The notes: generated by a model not told the origin, from the sequence alone. A DNA stretch of 14,261 nt from a virus (UHGV-0247634); one strand, 5' to 3'; positions 2,373 to 13,647 are shown, numbered from the stretch's first letter. Numbers and translations: made by a program.

Positions 2373-4129
2373 TGGCAAAAGTGGCTGACGGGATCCGCTA
2401 CGCCGAACGTGTTGTTGCAGGAGAAATTGTCGCTGGCGAATTTGTCCGTCTGGCCTGCCAGCGTTTTCTTGATGATCTGAAGTACGGCGAAGAGCGGGGG
2501 ATTTATTTCAGTGAACCCCGTGCGCAGCACATCCTGAATTTCTACAAATTTGTGCCCCATGTAAAAGGGGCGCTGGCAGGCCAGCCCATTGAACTGATGG
2601 ACTGGCATGTATTTATCCTCATTAATATTTTTGGTTTTGTCATTCCGCTGGTCAATGAAGAGACCGGGGAAGTTGTCATGCGCAGCGATGGCAGCGGACG
2701 TCCGGTGATGGTGCGCCGGTTCCGGACGGCGTACAACGAAGTCGCCCGTAAAAACGCAAAATCAACCCTGTCATCGGGTATCGGCCTGTATATGACGGGG
2801 GCAGATGGTGAAGGCGGGGCTGAGGTGTATTCAGCTGCAACCACGCGTGACCAGGCCAGAATTGTGTTTGAAGACGCCAAAAATATGGTCAGAAAAGCCC
2901 GGTCGACACTCGGGCGATTGTTTGATTTCAACAAGCTGGCGATTTACCAGGAGCAGAGCGCATCAAAATTTGAACCGCTTTCCTCGGATGCAAACAACCT
3001 GGACGGTCTGAACATCCACTGCGCCATTATTGATGAGCTGCATGCACATAAAACCCGTGATGTGTGGGATGTTCTGGAAACGGCAACCGGTGCCCGTCTG
3101 CAGTCCCTGTTATTTGGTATCACCACGGCAGGCTTTAACAAGGAAGGGATCTGTTACGAGCAGCGTGATTACGCCATTAAGGTATTGCGTGGCTATAACA
3201 GCAACGTGGAGGGCGCGGTAAAAGACGACTCCTACTTTGCGATCATTTACACGCTCGATGAGGGAGATGATCCGTTTGATGAAACGGTCTGGCAGAAAGC
3301 GAATCCCGGCCTGGGCATCTGTAAACGCTGGGATGATCTGCGTCGTCTGGCGAAAAAAGCGAAGGAGCAGGTTTCAGCGCGGGTGAATTTTTTCACGAAA
3401 CACATGAATGTGTGGGTCACTGCCGAATCTGCCTGGATGGACATGATTAAGTGGGAGAAGTGCGAATATATTGCTCCACAGCATGAGCTGAAAACCTATC
3501 CCATGTGGGTCGGCGTCGACCTTGCTCATAAGATTGATATCTGTGCGGCGGCAAAACTCTGGCGAACCGATAACGGACATGTTCATGCTGATTTTAAATT
3601 CTGGCTCCCGGAAGGACGGCTGGAGCGGTGCTCGCGGCAGCAGGCAGAACTTTACCGGAAATGGGCCGAGATGGATAAGCTCATCCTGACGGATGGTGAT
3701 GTTATCGATCATGCTCAGATAAAAAGTGACTTACTGGAATGGATTGGTGGTGAAAACCTGAGGGAGCTGGGATTTGATCCGTGGAGCGCGATGCAGTTCA
3801 GTCTGGCGCTGGCTGAAGAAGGGATACCGCTGGTGGAGGTTCCGCAGACGGTCCGCAATCTGTCAGAGGCCATGAAGGAAACGGAATCACTGGTCTATGC
3901 CGGGCGTTTCCATCACAGCAATCACCCGGTCATGAACTGGATGATGTCTAACGTTACGGTAAAACCGGACAAAAACGACAATATCTTCCCGAACAAATCC
4001 ACGCCGGAAGCCAAAATCGACGGTCCTGTTGCGATGTTTACAGCAATGAGCCGGATGCTGGTCAATGGCGGTGAACCGGAGCCGGATCTGTCTGAGCATC
4101 TGGTCAGCGTTGGTATCCGCTCGCTTTAA
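2372..4129 (+). CDS. terminase large subunit (ATPase plus nuclease)
   Basis: 585-aa ORF immediately after the small terminase. Walker B-like hhhhDE ([10 protein letters not shown]) in the N-terminal half and an acidic RNase H-like nuclease motif ([12 protein letters not shown]) in the C-terminal half. Size and position typical of TerL. Confidence 0.93.
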
Positions 4130-4140
4130 CCGAGGTCATT

Positions 4141-4323
4141 ATGTTTCTGATAATTCTCACACCACTGGTTGGCGTGCTGGGGGCGCTTTTGCTGTCGTAT
4201 GGCACATGGCTGATTTATCCCCCGGCAGGTTTTGTTGTTGCCGGGGCGCTGTGCCTGTTCTGGTCGTGGCTGGTTGCTCGTTATCTCGATCGCGGTCAGC
4301 GGGTCGCCTCCGGAGGTGAGTAA
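4141..4323 (+). CDS. hypothetical small membrane protein (two predicted TM helices) between terminase and portal
   Basis: 60-aa ORF ([49 protein letters not shown]...) with GC-rich third-position codon pattern like neighbouring genes. Stop TAA overlaps the portal ATG (TAATG at 4321-4325). No family recognised. Confidence 0.5.
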
Positions 4324-5564
4324 TGTTTTTCCAGGGGCTTTTTCAACGCAAAAATAACACTCCCGTTACAACACCCGGGATGCTTGCGGAAGAGCTGGGA
4401 TTGTCATACGACACCTATACCGGAAAGCGGATCAGCAGTCAGCGGGCCATGCGGCTGACGGCGGTTTATTCCTGCGTCAGGGTGCTGGCGGAGTCTGTTG
4501 GTATGCTGCCCTGCAGTCTCTACAAAATCACCGGCACCCTTAAAACACGCGCGGTGGATGAACGACTGCATAAGCTGATTTCGGCAAAACCCAATGGCTA
4601 CATGACGCCGCAGGAATTCTGGGAACTGGTCATTGTCTGCCTGTGTCTGCGGGGGAATTTTTACGCCTACAAGGTGAAGGCGCTGGGGGAAGTTGTGGAG
4701 CTTCTTCCGATAGATCCGGGCTGTGTGGAACCGAAGCTGAACAGCCAGTGGCAGCCGGTTTATCAGGTGACGTTTCCGGATGGCTCCGTGGATGTGCTGA
4801 CCCAGAATGAAATCTGGCATGTGCGCACTCTGACGCTGGACGGACTGGTCGGGCTGAATCCCATTGCGTATGCGCGTGAGGCCATTTCACTGGCAGCGGC
4901 AACTGAGGAGCACGGCGCCAGGTTGTTTGGTAACGGCGCTGTGACATCCGGTGTGTTGCGTACGGATCAACAACTTTCTGATCAGGCTTATGCGCGTATC
5001 AAAAAGGACTTTGAGGAACGGCATGTCGGGCTGGGAAATTCTCATCGTCCGATGATTCTGGAAATGGGGCTGGACTGGAAAACGGTGGCACTGAATGCCG
5101 AGGACAGCCAGTTCCTGGAAACCCGCAAGTTTCAGCTGGAAGAAATCTGTCGCCTGTTCCGCGTGCCGCTGCATATGGTGCAGAACACCGATCGCGCCAC
5201 CTTCAACAATATTGAAGAGCTGGGGCTTGGTTTCATTAACTATTCCCTTGTGCCGTATCTGACCCGTATTGAACAGCGGATCAATACAGGGCTGGTCAGG
5301 GAGAGCAAGCAGGGGAAGTTTTACGCCAAATTTAATGCCGGAGCATTGTTGCGTGGCGACATGAAATCCCGCTTTGAAGCGTATGCCACGGGGATCAACT
5401 GGGGGATTTATTCCCCTAATGACTGCCGTGATCTGGAAGATATGAATCCCCGACCGGGCGGTGATGTGTATCTGACACCGATGAACATGACCACCAGTCC
5501 CTCTGCTGGCGATGACAACGGTAAGAAAAAGGAGAGTGGAGATGCAGACAAAACAGCGTCTTGA
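4323..5564 (+). CDS. portal protein, HK97 family
   Basis: 413-aa ORF directly downstream of the large terminase and upstream of the prohead protease; SD GGAGGT precedes the ATG. Size and gene order match HK97-type portal proteins. Confidence 0.88.
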   Translation: MFFQGLFQRKNNTPVTTPGMLAEELGLSYDTYTGKRISSQRAMRLTAVYSCVRVLAESVGMLPCSLYKITGTLKTRAVDERLHKLISAKPNGYMTPQEFWELVIVCLCLRGNFYAYKVKALGEVVELLPIDPGCVEPKLNSQWQPVYQVTFPDGSVDVLTQNEIWHVRTLTLDGLVGLNPIAYAREAISLAAATEEHGARLFGNGAVTSGVLRTDQQLSDQAYARIKKDFEERHVGLGNSHRPMILEMGLDWKTVALNAEDSQFLETRKFQLEEICRLFRVPLHMVQNTDRATFNNIEELGLGFINYSLVPYLTRIEQRINTGLVRESKQGKFYAKFNAGALLRGDMKSRFEAYATGINWGIYSPNDCRDLEDMNPRPGGDVYLTPMNMTTSPSAGDDNGKKKESGDADKTAS

Positions 5565-8948: not shown

Positions 8949-8974
8949 ACCCGCCGCTGGCGGGTTTTTATTTT
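8949..8974 (+). terminator. rho-independent terminator-like hairpin plus U-tract between neck genes and major tail gene
   Basis: acccgcc (8949-8955) pairs with ggcgggt (8959-8965), loop gct, followed by tttttatttt. Canonical intrinsic terminator geometry on the + strand. Confidence 0.55.
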
Positions 8975-8986
8975 CAGGAGACGAGT

Positions 8987-9691
8987 ATGTCCTCTAATTT
9001 TGAGCGTTCGCAACTGACGAAAATTATGATTTCGTCTGCACCGGTAACAGCAGAAACCCTGGATTCTGCCAGCTATCTTGGCCTGAGCTGTACAATCAAA
9101 GAGGTGCAGTTTACCGCAGGACAAAAGCAGGATATTGATGTCACCACGCTGTGTTCTGTTGAGCAGGAAAATATTAACGGTCTTGGTGCCGCGTCAGAGA
9201 TTTCCATGTCAGGCAACTTTTACCTTAATGCTGCCCAGAACGCGTTGCGCAGTGCCTATGACAATGACACCACGTATGGCTTTAAAGTTATTTTTCCGTC
9301 AGGAAACGGATTTACCTTTATGGCAGAGGTGCGTCAGCATACCTGGTCTGCAGGAACCAATGGTGTTGTGGCTGCAACGTTTTCCCTGCGCCTGAAAGGT
9401 AAACCTGTGCTGACGACAGAGCCGCTGAAAGTGAAGGTAGATTTAAACAGCACGCTGCAGGTTTCTGCCGGAGCGAAACTCGAAATGGTGGTTGAGGCTG
9501 CCGGTGGTGTGCCGCCTTATTCTTATGTCTGGAAGAAAGGTAGTTCTCCTGTTTCCGGACAGACGGCGGCAACGTTCAGTAAGGCATCAGCAGCATCCGG
9601 TGATGCCGGTGCGTATACCTGCGAGATTTCTGATTCAGCAAGCCCGGTTAACAAAGTGACCACCACTTCCTGCACTGTAACCGTCAGTTAA
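8987..9691 (+). CDS. major tail (tube) protein with C-terminal Ig-like domain
   Basis: 234-aa ORF with SD AGGAG 8976-8980. The N-terminal ~140 aa has a tail-tube-like region (GFKVIFPSGNGFTFMAEV, reminiscent of lambda gpV KIRFPNGT). The C-terminal ~90 aa resembles an Ig-like domain (VKVDLNSTLQVSAG...GGVPPYSYVWKKG...AGAYTCEISDSA...CTVTVS). Immediately precedes the G/GT chaperone genes. Confidence 0.8.
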   Translation: MSSNFERSQLTKIMISSAPVTAETLDSASYLGLSCTIKEVQFTAGQKQDIDVTTLCSVEQENINGLGAASEISMSGNFYLNAAQNALRSAYDNDTTYGFKVIFPSGNGFTFMAEVRQHTWSAGTNGVVAATFSLRLKGKPVLTTEPLKVKVDLNSTLQVSAGAKLEMVVEAAGGVPPYSYVWKKGSSPVSGQTAATFSKASAASGDAGAYTCEISDSASPVNKVTTTSCTVTVS

Positions 9692-10077
9692 TGAGGATGG
9701 ATGTGATGACTAAAAATATCCGTAATCTTGCACTGGCAACGATGTCGGGGTTTCGCCATAAAACCGTTGATGTGCCTGAATGGGAGGGAGCAACGGTTGT
9801 GTTACGGGAACCTTCTGCAGAAGCCTGGTTGCGCTGGCAGGAGATCGTTAAAGCCAGGGAAGATGATACATCGCCATCTGTTGCAGAGCGTGCCCGCCGA
9901 AATCTGGAGGCGGACGTTGAGCTGTTCATTGATGTTCTGTGTGATACCGGGCTGCAACCCGTATTTTCAGAGGATGATCGTGAACAGGTGATTGCCGTGT
10001 ATGGCCCGGTGCATGCCCGGCTTCTTCGCCAGTCTCTGGAACTGATCAGTGATGCCGGAGAGGTTAAAAAAAAGTAG
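9691..10077 (+). CDS. tail assembly chaperone (gpG-like)
   Basis: ORF between the major tail and tape measure genes, ending in a slippery A-run. Alternative start ATG 9706 has SD GAGGA at 9693-9697; ATG 9691 overlaps the upstream stop (TAATG). Confidence 0.75.
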   Translation: MRMDVMTKNIRNLALATMSGFRHKTVDVPEWEGATVVLREPSAEAWLRWQEIVKAREDDTSPSVAERARRNLEADVELFIDVLCDTGLQPVFSEDDREQVIAVYGPVHARLLRQSLELISDAGEVKKK

Positions 10078-10379
10078 CGCTTCCGGGGATGCGTTTTCTG
10101 ATGATGCTGGCGCTCAGGATGGGGCGCACATTGTCAGAGTTACGCCGGGAAATGTCCGCATCAGAAATCATGATGTGGGCAGAATTTGACAGGTTCAGCC
10201 CGCTGGGGGACGAACGGGCTGATATCCGGGCTGCCCAGATTGTTTCAGCTGTTTACGGTGCGCAGGGGGTTAAAGTACCACTGAATGATGTGCTTCTTCA
10301 GTGGGAGCAGGAGCAGACAGAAGGCGCCTCAGATCCATTTGCCGGGCTGGAAAACGCGCTTTTAACCGTGTCTCAGTGA
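9691..10379 (+). CDS. tail assembly chaperone frameshift fusion (gpGT-like), produced by -1 ribosomal frameshift at 10068-10074
   Basis: The zero-frame codons AAA AAG (10069-10074), preceded by A at 10068, form the slippery heptamer A_AAA_AAG just before the G stop (TAG 10075-10077). The -1 frame is open from 10074 through the downstream ORF to its stop at 10379. The distal part (MRFLMMLALRMGRTLSELRREMSASEIMMWAEFDRFSPLGDERADIRAAQIVSAV) resembles the lambda gpT family. Confidence 0.7.
10068..10074 (+). promoter_or_regulatory. programmed -1 ribosomal frameshift slippery heptamer A_AAA_AAG
   Basis: Same heptamer type as the E. coli dnaX frameshift site, located at the 3' end of the gpG-like ORF with the downstream ORF in the -1 frame. 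Confidence 0.65.
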
Positions 10380-10387
10380 GTCAACAT

Positions 10388-10409
10388 AACCGCTTCGGCG
10401 GTTTTTTTT
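10388..10409 (+). terminator. rho-independent terminator-like hairpin (UUCG tetraloop) plus U-tract upstream of the tape measure gene
   Basis: aaccgc (10388-10393) pairs with gcggtt (10398-10403), loop ttcg, followed by a T-run to 10409. Lies 9 nt after the GT stop and 10 nt before the tape measure ATG. Confidence 0.5.
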
Positions 10410-10419
10410 CGTCCGGAGA

Positions 10420-13400
10420 ATGAGTGTGGCGACATTACGTGAACTGATTATTAAAATTTCGGCAAACTCCCGGTCATTTCAGTCAGAGATCTCCCGGGCT
10501 TCGCGTATGGGGCAGGATTACTACCGCACCATGCAGAATGGAAGCCGACAGTCCGCTGCTGCATCCCGTGAAATGCGGCGTGCACTGGCAGAAGTGACGG
10601 ATCAGATAAATACAGCTAAATCTTCGGCACTGAACATGGCGGGGGCATTTGCCGGGGCTTTTGCTACCGGTCATCTTATTTCTCTCGCCGATGAGTGGAA
10701 TTCAGTCAATGCCCGTCTGAAGCAGGCCTCACAGTCCAGTGATGATTTTCAGGCATCACAACGCGAATTAATGGCAATCAGCCAGAGAACGGGGACGGCT
10801 TTTTCTGATAACGCCAGCCTTTTTGCCCGCTCTGCAGCTTCCATGCGGGAGTATGGCTACAGTTCTGAGGAGGTACTGAAAGTCAACGAGGCGATCTCCA
10901 CGGGCCTGAAATTATCCGGTGCCAGTACAGCAGAAGCCAGTTCGGTGATCACGCAGTTCAGTCAGGCACTGGCGCAGGGAGTGCTGCGCGGTGAAGAGTT
11001 TAACTCGGTGAATGAGAACGGCGATCGTGTTATTCGTGCGCTGGCTGCGGGAATGGGCGTTGCCCGTAAGGATCTGAAGGCCATGGCGGATAACGGAAAA
11101 CTGACCGCCGATAAGGTTGTTCCTGCACTGATTAGTCAGCTTGGGGCATTACGTGATGAATATGCGGCAATGCCTGATACGGTTTCATCCTCTGCAACCA
11201 AAGTTGAAAACGCCTTTATGGCCTGGGTTGGTGGTGCGAACGAGGCAAGCGGAGTGACGAAGACGCTCTCCGGTGTGCTGAATAGTATTGCAGGCAATAT
11301 TGACACCGTGGCAACCGCTGCCGGTGCACTGGTTGCCGTCGGGGTAGCCCGATATTTTGGCAATATGGCATCTTCTGCTGGCTCTGCAACTGCCGGGCTA
11401 ATCACTGCGGCCAGAAACGAAGTGGCTCTTGCTGAAGCGCAACTTCGGGGGACACAGATAGCAACTGCCAGGGCGCGTGCGGCGGTTTATCGTGCGCAAC
11501 AGGCGGTTGTTGCTGCTCGCGGTACCGAAAGGCAGGCCGCAGCAGAAGCGAAGCTGACAGCTGCCCAGGCGTCACTTACCCGTAATATTGCGGCCAGAAC
11601 AGCGGCACAGACAACGCTGAATACTGTCACGTCAGTGGGGAGTCGTTTATTAAGTGGCGCGCTGGGGCTGGTTGGTGGTGTGCCGGGACTCGTCATGCTG
11701 GGGGCTGCGGCCTGGTACACGATGTATCAGAATCAGGAGCAGGCCAGAGAATCTGCACGCCAGTATGCCGCAACAATCGACGAAATTCGCCAGAAAACGT
11801 CGGCAATGTCGCTTCCTGAAGCGTCAGATAATGAGGAAAAAACGCGACAGGCACTGAAGGAGCAGAACAGGTTAATTGACGAGCAGAAAAGTAAGATTAA
11901 ATCCTTACAGGAAAAAATTGCTGGCTATCAGTATGTGCTGGCAAATCCGGGCTGGACAACCGATAACGGTTTTATGATAAACCACATGACGTCGGTAAAA
12001 ACTGTCACAGAAGGGCTTGCAGAAGCAACAAATCAACTGGCAGTTGAACAGTCTCGCCTCACTCAAATGCAGGGCAAAGCGCAATCCATTCAGGATGTGC
12101 TTGCCGGGCTGGAGGAGCGACGGGTGGCGTTGATCCGTCAACAGGCAGCGGAACAAAACAAAGCGTATCAGTCCCTGTTGATCATGAATGGGCAGCATAC
12201 CGAGTTTAATCGCCTTCTCGGGCTTGGTAATGAATTACTTCAGCAGCGACAGGGGCTGGTGAATGTACCGTTACGGCTACCACAGGCAACCCTGGATGAT
12301 AAACAGCAGACCGCACTGAATAACAGCAAGCGCGAACTGGCTCTGTCCCGCCTGAAGGGGGAAGCGCGTGAGCGTGCCCGACTGGGCTATGCTGCGGATG
12401 ATCTCGGCTTTGTGGGAGAGGCGTATCAGACAGCCAGACAGAATTATATCAATAACTCACTGGATGCCTGGCGAAATAACCAGGCAAATAAACCGCATAA
12501 AAAAACCGAAGCGGAAAAAACAGAGGATATTTATAAACGACTGATTAAACAGCAAAAAGAACAGATAGCACTGGCAGGGCAGAATACTGAACTGGCTAAG
12601 ATGAAATATCAGGTCAGTCAGGGCGAATTATCAACCCTGTCAGAAGCGCAGAAAAAAACGCTTTTGCAGAATGCAGCACTCATCGACCAGAAAAAGATTC
12701 GTGAGCAGCTTGCTGCGTATGAGAGCAGTCTGGCGGACAGTAATGCCAGTGCCCGGGCATCTGACGACGCGCAGTTGCTGGGATATGGTGAAGGCTCACG
12801 GATGCGTGAACGACTCCAGGAAATGTGGAGTATCCGGCAGACGTTTGAGCAGAAAAATAACGAGCTGCTGAGACAGTATCAGGCCGGAGAAATTGAAGAA
12901 GCCCTGTGGAAACAGGAGAAAGAACTGAATAAAAAATATCTGGAAGAGCGTCTCAGCGATCAGCATGATTATTATGCAAAGGCCGATGCTTTACGTAATA
13001 ACTGGAATGCCGGACTCCAGGAGGGACTGAGCAACTGGGCAGACAGTGCCACCGATTATGCTTCACAGGCGGCAGATGCTGTCGTTTCCACGATGGACGG
13101 GCTGGTATCAAATATTTCCGATGCACTGGCCGGGAATGTTGTGGAGTGGAGGAACTGGGGGAGTTCAGTTCTCCGGGAAGTTTCAAAAATTCTGATGAAT
13201 GCGGCCATTGTTAACGGACTGAAGTCACTCTCCGGTGCCGGAGGGTGGCTTGGTACGGTCGGCGGATGGATTTCGGGGGCGGTGGCAAACGCAAAAGGTG
13301 GTGTTTACACATCGGCAAATCTGAGTGCTTACAGTAACACTATTGTGGATACACCGACGTATTTTGCTTTTGCGAAAGGTGCCGGGCTGATGGGCGAGGC

Positions 13401-13647
13401 CGGGCCTGAAGCTATCATGCCACTGACACGGGCAGCGGACGGCTCTCTTGGGGTCAGAGCCATTGGCAATGTGAATGGTGGCGGTGGATTTGTTTATTCT
13501 CCCGTGTATCACATCAGCATTCAGAATCAAGGGAGCAATGGCGAGATAGATGCGCGCTCAGCCAGGGGACTGGTGGATCTGATCGACAGCAGGGTTGTGT
13601 CAATTATGCAGTCATCGCGTCGGGATGGAGGATTATACAGTGCCTGA
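10420..13647 (+). CDS. tail tape measure protein
   Basis: 1075-aa ORF following the G/GT pair. Ala/Gln-rich, predicted helical sequence with an internal hydrophobic segment (LLSGALGLVGGVPGLVMLGAAAWY) and a Gly-rich C-terminal region. Position and size typical of siphovirus tape measure proteins. Confidence 0.9.
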   Translation: MSVATLRELIIKISANSRSFQSEISRASRMGQDYYRTMQNGSRQSAAASREMRRALAEVTDQINTAKSSALNMAGAFAGAFATGHLISLADEWNSVNARLKQASQSSDDFQASQRELMAISQRTGTAFSDNASLFARSAASMREYGYSSEEVLKVNEAISTGLKLSGASTAEASSVITQFSQALAQGVLRGEEFNSVNENGDRVIRALAAGMGVARKDLKAMADNGKLTADKVVPALISQLGALRDEYAAMPDTVSSSATKVENAFMAWVGGANEASGVTKTLSGVLNSIAGNIDTVATAAGALVAVGVARYFGNMASSAGSATAGLITAARNEVALAEAQLRGTQIATARARAAVYRAQQAVVAARGTERQAAAEAKLTAAQASLTRNIAARTAAQTTLNTVTSVGSRLLSGALGLVGGVPGLVMLGAAAWYTMYQNQEQARESARQYAATIDEIRQKTSAMSLPEASDNEEKTRQALKEQNRLIDEQKSKIKSLQEKIAGYQYVLANPGWTTDNGFMINHMTSVKTVTEGLAEATNQLAVEQSRLTQMQGKAQSIQDVLAGLEERRVALIRQQAAEQNKAYQSLLIMNGQHTEFNRLLGLGNELLQQRQGLVNVPLRLPQATLDDKQQTALNNSKRELALSRLKGEARERARLGYAADDLGFVGEAYQTARQNYINNSLDAWRNNQANKPHKKTEAEKTEDIYKRLIKQQKEQIALAGQNTELAKMKYQVSQGELSTLSEAQKKTLLQNAALIDQKKIREQLAAYESSLADSNASARASDDAQLLGYGEGSRMRERLQEMWSIRQTFEQKNNELLRQYQAGEIEEALWKQEKELNKKYLEERLSDQHDYYAKADALRNNWNAGLQEGLSNWADSATDYASQAADAVVSTMDGLVSNISDALAGNVVEWRNWGSSVLREVSKILMNAAIVNGLKSLSGAGGWLGTVGGWISGAVANAKGGVYTSANLSAYSNTIVDTPTYFAFAKGAGLMGEAGPEAIMPLTRAADGSLGVRAIGNVNGGGGFVYSPVYHISIQNQGSNGEIDARSARGLVDLIDSRVVSIMQSSRRDGGLYSA

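Follow-up and report, generated by a model that had tools for sequence, protein, structure and literature searches.

A probable C-terminal immunoglobulin-like domain on the tail tube protein of an HK97-like Escherichia coli prophage and its modular distribution among relatives

The tail tube proteins of siphophages often carry an immunoglobulin (Ig)-like domain; in the enterobacterial siphophage clusters, about 70% of tube proteins have one of the Big_1, Big_2, or I-set type (PMC9022992). HK97 gp12, BP-4795 ORF64, and PY54 gp12 are tabulated, after Fraser et al. 2006, as tube proteins with an I-set Ig-like domain (PMC9022992). Domains of this kind face outward from the tube and have been proposed to bind carbohydrates weakly (PMC8718954, PMC9022992), and they are thought to serve an accessory function in adsorption (PMC9022992). 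Their carbohydrate role “remains to be experimentally verified” (PMC8718954). A literature search for experimental work on the Ig domain of HK97 gp12 found none.

The window considered here is a 14,261-nucleotide stretch of viral DNA (UHGV-0247634), and the Ig-like feature at the end of its major tail gene is already known: it is a member of the published HK97 gp12 case, since both BP-4795 and HK97 are found among the tblastn matches at 72–73% identity, together with HK106, HK633, and Stx phages. Aligned with HK97 gp12 (“major tail subunit”), the window protein is identical at 165 of 234 positions (71%) with 0 gaps (E 2e-127). The discovery value is accordingly small: a 2006 catalogue already covered the Ig-like domains of siphophage tube proteins, HK97 gp12 is one of the cases it names, and annotation is public, with several of the listed E. 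coli copies already labelled “immunoglobulin domain-containing protein”. The Ig-less orthologues, natural chimera, and divergent alleles described below nonetheless offer natural material for examining the role of tube-borne Ig domains, and this pattern of alleles, loss, and chimerism is the only, and mildly, new angle. The gene and its parts are as follows.

8987..9691, + strand: major tail (tube) protein gene, 234 aa followed by a TAA stop; orthologue of HK97 gp12
8987..9406, + strand: tube-forming domain, residues 1-140, ending ...LRLKGKP (weak Pfam matches, Foldseek)
9407..9427, + strand: linker VLTTEPL, residues 141-147 (variable stretch; boundary approximate, ±3 residues)
9428..9688, + strand: predicted Ig-like domain of the C2/I-set type, residues 148-234, about 87 residues (Pfam, PHROG, PDB, AlphaFold2, Foldseek)

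According to a Pfam scan, the window comprises the late structural genes of an HK97-like siphophage. Upstream of the tube gene, the order is portal, major capsid (Phage_capsid), gp6-like connector, head completion, HK97-gp10-like, and tail completion; downstream it continues with the tail assembly chaperones (Phage_TAC_1 and Phage_tail_T), a 1075-aa HK97-type tape measure, and a minor tail protein. The Pfam families flanking the gene are thus Tail_completion_gp17 on the upstream side and Phage_TAC_1, Phage_tail_T, and Phage_HK97_TLTM on the downstream side, and the tail modules of phage Evi and HK97 follow the same order as the window. At the nucleotide level, the gene is 95–99% identical to annotated major tail genes of the Escherichia phages Evi, vB_EcoM-606R7, and phi467, among others. 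Of the 5426 complete E. coli genomes searched, 873 carry it, and its location is chromosomal in every case. The neighbouring features are listed below.

8949..8975, + strand: terminator-like hairpin with a T-run (terminator scan, also visible in the sequence)
8976-8980, + strand: Shine-Dalgarno sequence AGGAG, directly 3′ of the hairpin and before the tube gene
9691-10077, + strand: tail assembly chaperone G (Pfam Phage_TAC_1, E 4e-58)
10068-10074, + strand: -1 slippery site A AAA AAG (read from the sequence)
10089-10379, + strand: tail assembly chaperone T (Pfam Phage_tail_T, E 5e-20)
10420..13647, + strand: tape measure protein, 1075 aa (Pfam Phage_HK97_TLTM, E 6e-93, plus TMP_3 and Tape_meas_lam_C)

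The hairpin at 8949-8975 (ACCCGCC-gct-GGCGGGT, then TTTTTATTTT) sits between the tail completion and major tail genes, and the HK97 record has a putative terminator annotated at the equivalent spot before gene 12. This element may tune the level or stability of the tail-gene transcript. A second terminator-like hairpin (10388-10411, AACCGC-ttcg-GCGGTT followed by T8) lies just 5′ of the tape measure gene; its HK97 equivalent is a putative terminator after moron gene 15, and that moron is absent in the window.

In phage Evi and in clusters P0002 and P0006, the tube protein is annotated as a 251-aa product starting from an upstream ATG. This longer version was rejected for the window, where the corresponding ATG (8937) is out of frame by a single base within a T-run; the extension would also read through the terminator-like hairpin, and a good Shine-Dalgarno sequence precedes the ATG at 8987. 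Translation therefore likely starts at 8987, giving the 234-aa protein, and the 251-aa annotations are probably over-extended. In three database proteins (P0019, P0087, and P0094; 294-374 aa), the tail completion protein (PF11367) is fused to the tube protein; these, from CP-933V-type prophages, look like gene-calling or frameshift artefacts rather than real fusions.

The stop codon of the tube gene shares nucleotides with the first ATG of the following open reading frame (ORF) in a TAATG sequence (9689-9693), an arrangement that suggests translational coupling of the two. The Evi chaperone is annotated as starting 15 nt further downstream (window ATG 9706), and the true start is uncertain. 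The 3′ end of chaperone G (window 10063-10092) reads ...GTT AAA AAA AAG TAG, and the frame of the heptamer fits a -1 slip, whose product would continue GTA GCG CTT CCG GGG and run on into the T ORF at ATG 10089. Judged by its nucleotides, the predicted G/GT site of the window is the conserved frameshift of HK97 gp13/gp14, a pair whose record carries a -1 frameshift annotation.

As had been proposed from the DNA, the protein that bears the domain is the major tail, or tube, protein; the phage is an HK97-like prophage of E. coli. The identity of the protein follows from the match of the whole protein to phrog_158, “major tail protein” (E 5e-107), from the 71% identity to HK97 gp12, from a fold match to lambda gpV, and from the position of the gene. 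The N-terminal 140 residues give sub-threshold Pfam matches only (Phage_TTP_11, Phage_tail_2, and Phage_TTP_12), and an NCBIfam search returned no family match. The full-length AlphaFold2 model has a pLDDT of 81, and its best Foldseek match in the PDB is lambda gpV (7t4f, E 8e-9), followed by the YDC107 and monocin tube proteins. Residues 45-66 form a low-confidence loop in this model at the position of the long β2–β3 loop of tube proteins; in lambda gpV, residues 50-78 form this loop, which is flexible as long as the protein is monomeric and mediates contacts from ring to ring (PMC8718954).

The original prediction held that the last ~90 residues of this protein, encoded by nt 9419-9688, resemble an Ig-like domain with an approximate boundary, and it pointed to domain searching and structure prediction as the means of verification. 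These nucleotides correspond to residues 145-234, up to the last sense codon, and the peptides quoted in its favour are all found in the translation (GGVPPYSYVWKKG at residues 173-185, AGAYTCEISDSA at 207-218, and CTVTVS at 229-234). The Ig assignment is borne out by the domain search, in which Pfam Ig_2 scores above its curated cut-off, by comparison with solved structures, and by structure prediction of the domain alone (AlphaFold2, mean pLDDT 94.5) followed by a fold search whose matches are Ig domains; none of the searches assigned the region to a non-Ig fold. The boundary was right to within a few residues, the first Ig strand beginning at about residue 148 (nt ~9428). The region is very probably a C-terminal, independently folding Ig-like domain of the C2/I-set type on the tube protein of a temperate, HK97-like E. 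coli siphophage.

With a cut-off of 27 bits, the Ig_2 profile reaches 28.9 on the domain alone (E 1.4e-6) and 27.9 on the whole protein. Ig_3 (29.3 against 30) and I-set (21.6 against 23.7) both fall slightly under their cut-offs, which leaves Ig_2, the fold, and the precedent of HK97 as the basis for the subtype label; close relatives have precomputed matches to PF13895, PF13927, and PF07679. Other β-sandwich families (Big_2, FN3, and PKD/SprB) were considered and rejected. Neither Big_2 nor fn3 profiles occur among the Pfam matches at E <= 1, and the sole non-Ig Pfam match, to SprB, reaches 19.6 bits against a cut-off of 28 and spans 18 residues that amount to the GGxPPYxYxW motif. Two PHROG families of “Hoc-like head decoration” proteins match with E values of 1.5e-20 and 3.9e-15. 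Sequence matches in the PDB include Ig repeats found in tail and decoration proteins of phages (9c2d_S, E 7e-26; 9ncf_S, 3e-23; 8zvi_a, 2e-15) and, at E 1e-13, the Ig-like domain at the C-terminus of T5 pb10 (5LXK), an NMR structure (PMC5292684). Weaker matches are to CEA/CEACAM, MDGA1, Dscam, and titin.

Several hallmark residues of the Ig fold are in place. W182 in strand C is 98% conserved in the family, and the strand-F motif D206-A-G-A-Y210-T-C212 is present, with its D, G, Y, and C conserved at 93–98%. The canonical B–F disulfide is absent, as strand B (164-172, KLEMVVEAA) contains no cysteine and has Met167 at the usual position. Lack of the strand-B cysteine is usual in phage Ig-like domains and in those that fold in the cytoplasm, and the Pfam families do not demand it. 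A second cysteine, C229 in strand G, is 89% conserved, and its co-occurrence with C212 is not strict; an obligatory F–G disulfide between C212 and C229 is unsupported, as some relatives keep only one cysteine of the two.

The AlphaFold2 model of the domain (residues 140-234, built with 60 homologues) has a pTM of 0.82. It contains 8-9 strands, namely A (148-151), A′ (156-159), B (165-172), C (179-184), E (196-199), F (208-215), and G (223-233) as well as C′, and the predicted β-sandwich superposes on solved Ig domains. In a Foldseek comparison of this model with the PDB, 50 of 50 among the matches listed are Ig-superfamily domains or phage Ig-like decoration proteins. The best is the Ig-like C2 domain of MALT1 (3bfo; TMq 0.81, TMt 0.90, rmsd 1.5 Å), followed by the capsid decoration Ig domains of Moo19 and N4 (TMq 0.79-0.84), with Sidekick, VEGFR, Dscam, titin, and pb10-CTD further down. 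Among viral models, superposition of the Ig part gives 0.8-1.4 Å with Hoc, outer-capsid, and “tail” proteins, including Hoc of Salmonella phage wast (rmsd 1.0 Å, TMt 0.91).

Many relatives of the tube protein are just 147-151 aa long and consist of the tube domain and a short tail. In a scan of one genome per species, which yielded 23 loci, the Ig domain is present in 13 (frameshifted in one, L013), one locus is cut by a contig end, and 9 are Ig-less. The Ig-less loci have four different short C-terminal tails after KGKP. A tblastn search with the Ig domain found no Ig coding in these loci in any frame, including 1.5 kb downstream; the Ig-less orthologues are therefore genuine and not extended by frameshifting. 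They occur at about 1501-1950 in loci L021-L029, and at 4001-4444 in a Leclercia prophage outside the set of 23 (L002), where a 147-aa Ig-less gene stands in a syntenic module and the chaperone gene starts 9 nt after its stop. Their hosts include Enterobacter, Kosakonia, Superficieibacter, Brenneria, Leclercia, and others. In the frameshifted locus (L013 1501-2203, Leclercia adecarboxylata NCTC13032), the tube reading frame is cut short at 50 aa, with the Ig part in a different frame; this interruption probably reflects a decaying prophage copy or a sequencing error.

The linker (residues 141-147) is the most variable and indel-prone part of the alignment of relatives. It is where the Ig-less orthologues stop, 7-11 residues past KGKP, and where the protein P0009 switches parents. 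Some of the Ig-less tails resemble the linkers of Ig-bearing relatives (TNINAVEQTS* vs TNINAPGILSF...), which suggests that the Ig domain may have been lost or gained in the linker repeatedly. In the window, one unbroken ORF spans the tube and Ig domains, and addition of the latter by a programmed frameshift of the SPP1 type was rejected on this ground.

P0009 appears to be a natural chimera that arose by recombination in or near the linker. With the HK97-type P0018, it shares 99.3% identity in the tube domain, and its C-terminal part is 53.7% identical to P0018, 89.5% to the window, and 93.7% to P0001. A third Ig type is represented by the P0092/P0101 group, in which the GGxPPY...W motif is kept and the Ig part has ~25–30% identity to the window Ig segment and to the other alleles; its tube domain is 75–79% identical to those of the other alleles. 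Beyond the tube protein family, a tblastn search with the Ig domain alone matched 566 phage records, annotated as tube proteins of other families and as T5-like decoration, Hoc-like, “whisker”, or “tail” proteins. This wide spread is the promiscuity already described for such domains.

At the level of gene sequence, then, the Ig domain behaves as a modular element. It also appears not to be needed to build the tube, given the Ig-less orthologues of 147-151 aa and the mosaic structure of P0009.

The two domains evolve under different constraint. In pairwise comparisons of 61 full-length relatives, the tube domain averages 73% identity and the Ig domain 53%, and the former is the more conserved in 98% of pairs. 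Substitution rates were derived from two pairwise comparisons, with Evi and with HK97. Against Evi, the tube domain has a dN of 0 and a dS of 0.03, and the Ig domain a dN of 0.029 and a dS of 0.088 (dN/dS 0.33); against HK97, dN is 0.36 for the Ig domain and 0.13 for the tube domain, with an Ig dN/dS of ~0.16 at saturated dS. The Ig domain is thus under purifying selection, yet its constraint is relaxed relative to that of the tube domain, which fits an accessory surface module. Base composition gives no clear sign of a recent foreign origin of the Ig part, whose GC content (0.53) is not markedly anomalous relative to the tube domain (0.47) and the window (0.52).

In the proposed arrangement, residues 1-140 would form the tube, and the 7-residue linker would carry the Ig domain. 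To judge from the tails of lambda, T5, and YSD1 (PMC8718954, PMC9022992), this domain would project outward from every subunit of the assembled tube. The single in-frame fusion implies that each tube subunit carries one Ig domain. The tape measure determines how long the tail is and thereby how many Ig domains it bears; with 1075 aa, ~1.5 Å per residue, and ~4 nm per hexameric ring, the tail would comprise ~38-40 rings and display about 225-240 Ig copies; the earlier expectation of many copies along the tail is therefore a sound inference.

The most likely role of the domain, judged by precedent, is weak multivalent binding of surface glycans. It would act as an accessory, low-affinity adhesin for bacterial envelope polysaccharide or mucus, and such binding would keep the virion near the surface and raise the chance of productive adsorption. 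For this particular domain, the case for adhesion is evenly poised. Within this sequence family, the closest experimental precedent is the mucin binding reported for Hoc-type Ig domains; two papers on E. coli phages report that Hoc mediates adherence to mucin or mucus (PMC11150434, PMC11853027).

The main rival to glycan adhesion is a structural or stabilizing role, in which the Ig domain would chiefly make contacts with neighbouring subunits or rings, stiffen or protect the tube, or keep the subunit soluble before assembly. The same proposal has been made for the C-terminal domain of lambda gpV, which touches the neighbouring subunit and belongs to the Big_2 family; gpV without it is 100-fold less active. 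In the full-length model of the window protein, residues 131-150, including the linker, are predicted with fair confidence (pLDDT 82-87), which speaks for this role. The lambda domain, however, represents another Ig family, and the window protein has no Big_2 match. Moreover, Ig-less orthologues whose tube domains are 75–79% identical lie in intact-looking tail modules, the natural chimera P0009 swaps Ig types on an unchanged tube domain, and divergence is far more rapid in the Ig domain than in the tube domain. The Ig-less forms, the chimera, and the rapid divergence argue against a tightly co-evolved interface, and a mainly structural role is considered unlikely, though far from negligible.

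If glycan adhesion is the role, the target could lie on the animal host rather than on the bacterium, with the domain binding mucin glycans and holding the virion in gut mucus (“bacteriophage adherence to mucus”). The window domain does belong to the same sequence family as the Hoc-like and pb10-like decoration domains, for which the mucin precedent cited above exists, and the host is a gut bacterium, with the gene present in the 873 E. coli genomes noted earlier. All of this evidence nevertheless comes from capsid proteins of virulent T4-like phages, and the same domain is found in the plant- and insect-associated Pectobacterium, Dickeya, and Symbiopectobacterium, where mucin is irrelevant. 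Specialization for mucus is accordingly improbable.

A related and comparably doubtful proposal treats the Ig domains as exchangeable specificity cassettes, each allele possibly directed to another glycan (O-antigen, capsule, or mucin). It builds on the observation that a conserved tube domain is combined with three or more divergent Ig alleles, or occurs in several forms with no Ig domain, and that the linker is the place of recombination. If true, such cassettes would give temperate enterobacterial phages a tunable “pre-adsorption” layer of tropism that is independent of the tail tip.

At the other extreme, the domain could be a nearly neutral passenger, a promiscuous module carried along by recombination with no significant benefit, as its loss or absence in many orthologues and its relaxed constraint relative to the tube domain would allow. 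This is very unlikely: dN/dS values of 0.16-0.33 indicate that purifying selection is still acting, core and several non-core positions are more than 90% conserved across genera, and hundreds of E. coli genomes carry the domain in intact form. That the Ig resemblance is a chance or low-complexity effect in a region of some other fold, as the richness in S, V, A, and T and the trimming of the last ~11 residues by the tblastn low-complexity filter might hint, is already refuted by the concordance of independent profile, sequence, and structure tests (Pfam, PHROG, PDB, AlphaFold2, and Foldseek) and by the presence of W182 and the DxGxYxC motif.

Weak glycan binding by an outward-facing domain remains the preferred reading. 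Of the described systems, HK97 gp12 is the closest: like the window protein, it has 234 aa, a two-domain layout, and the same gene neighbourhood, and both loci have an upstream terminator-like hairpin and G/GT frameshift chaperones. The window carries a different Ig allele, with ~53% identity to the HK97-type P0018 in this domain as opposed to ~83% in the tube domain. HK97 also has a putative terminator after gene 12, whereas in the window the stop codon overlaps the next ATG.

Lambda gpV, and likewise T5 pb6 with its C-domain, shares with the window protein a tube domain followed in frame by one C-terminal Ig-like domain (PMC8718954). In lambda, this domain is exposed on the exterior of the tube and is not required for tube formation (PMC8718954); it also makes the neighbour contact and has the 100-fold effect on activity noted above. 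The difference lies in the family, as gpV-C and pb6-C are Big_2 domains and the window domain matches Ig_2, Ig_3, and I-set. By sequence, the window domain is closer to T5 pb10-CTD (5LXK), with which it has 39% identity and the motifs “GGxxPYxYxW” and “DAGxY” in common. The Ig domains of pb10 and Hoc are solvent-exposed, accessory, and thought to bind glycans (PMC5292684). They differ in their mode of display: pb10 is anchored to the capsid through a separate binding domain and Hoc consists of tandem repeats, whereas the window domain is a single copy fused to the tube subunit. SPP1 gp17.1*, finally, is a siphophage tube protein that, like the window protein, bears a C-terminal Ig-fold decoration, an FN3 domain dispensable for infectivity and tube formation (PMC8718954). 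In SPP1, this domain is added by a programmed +1 frameshift to about one quarter of the subunits, whereas the Ig domain of the window is encoded in frame and is expected on every subunit.
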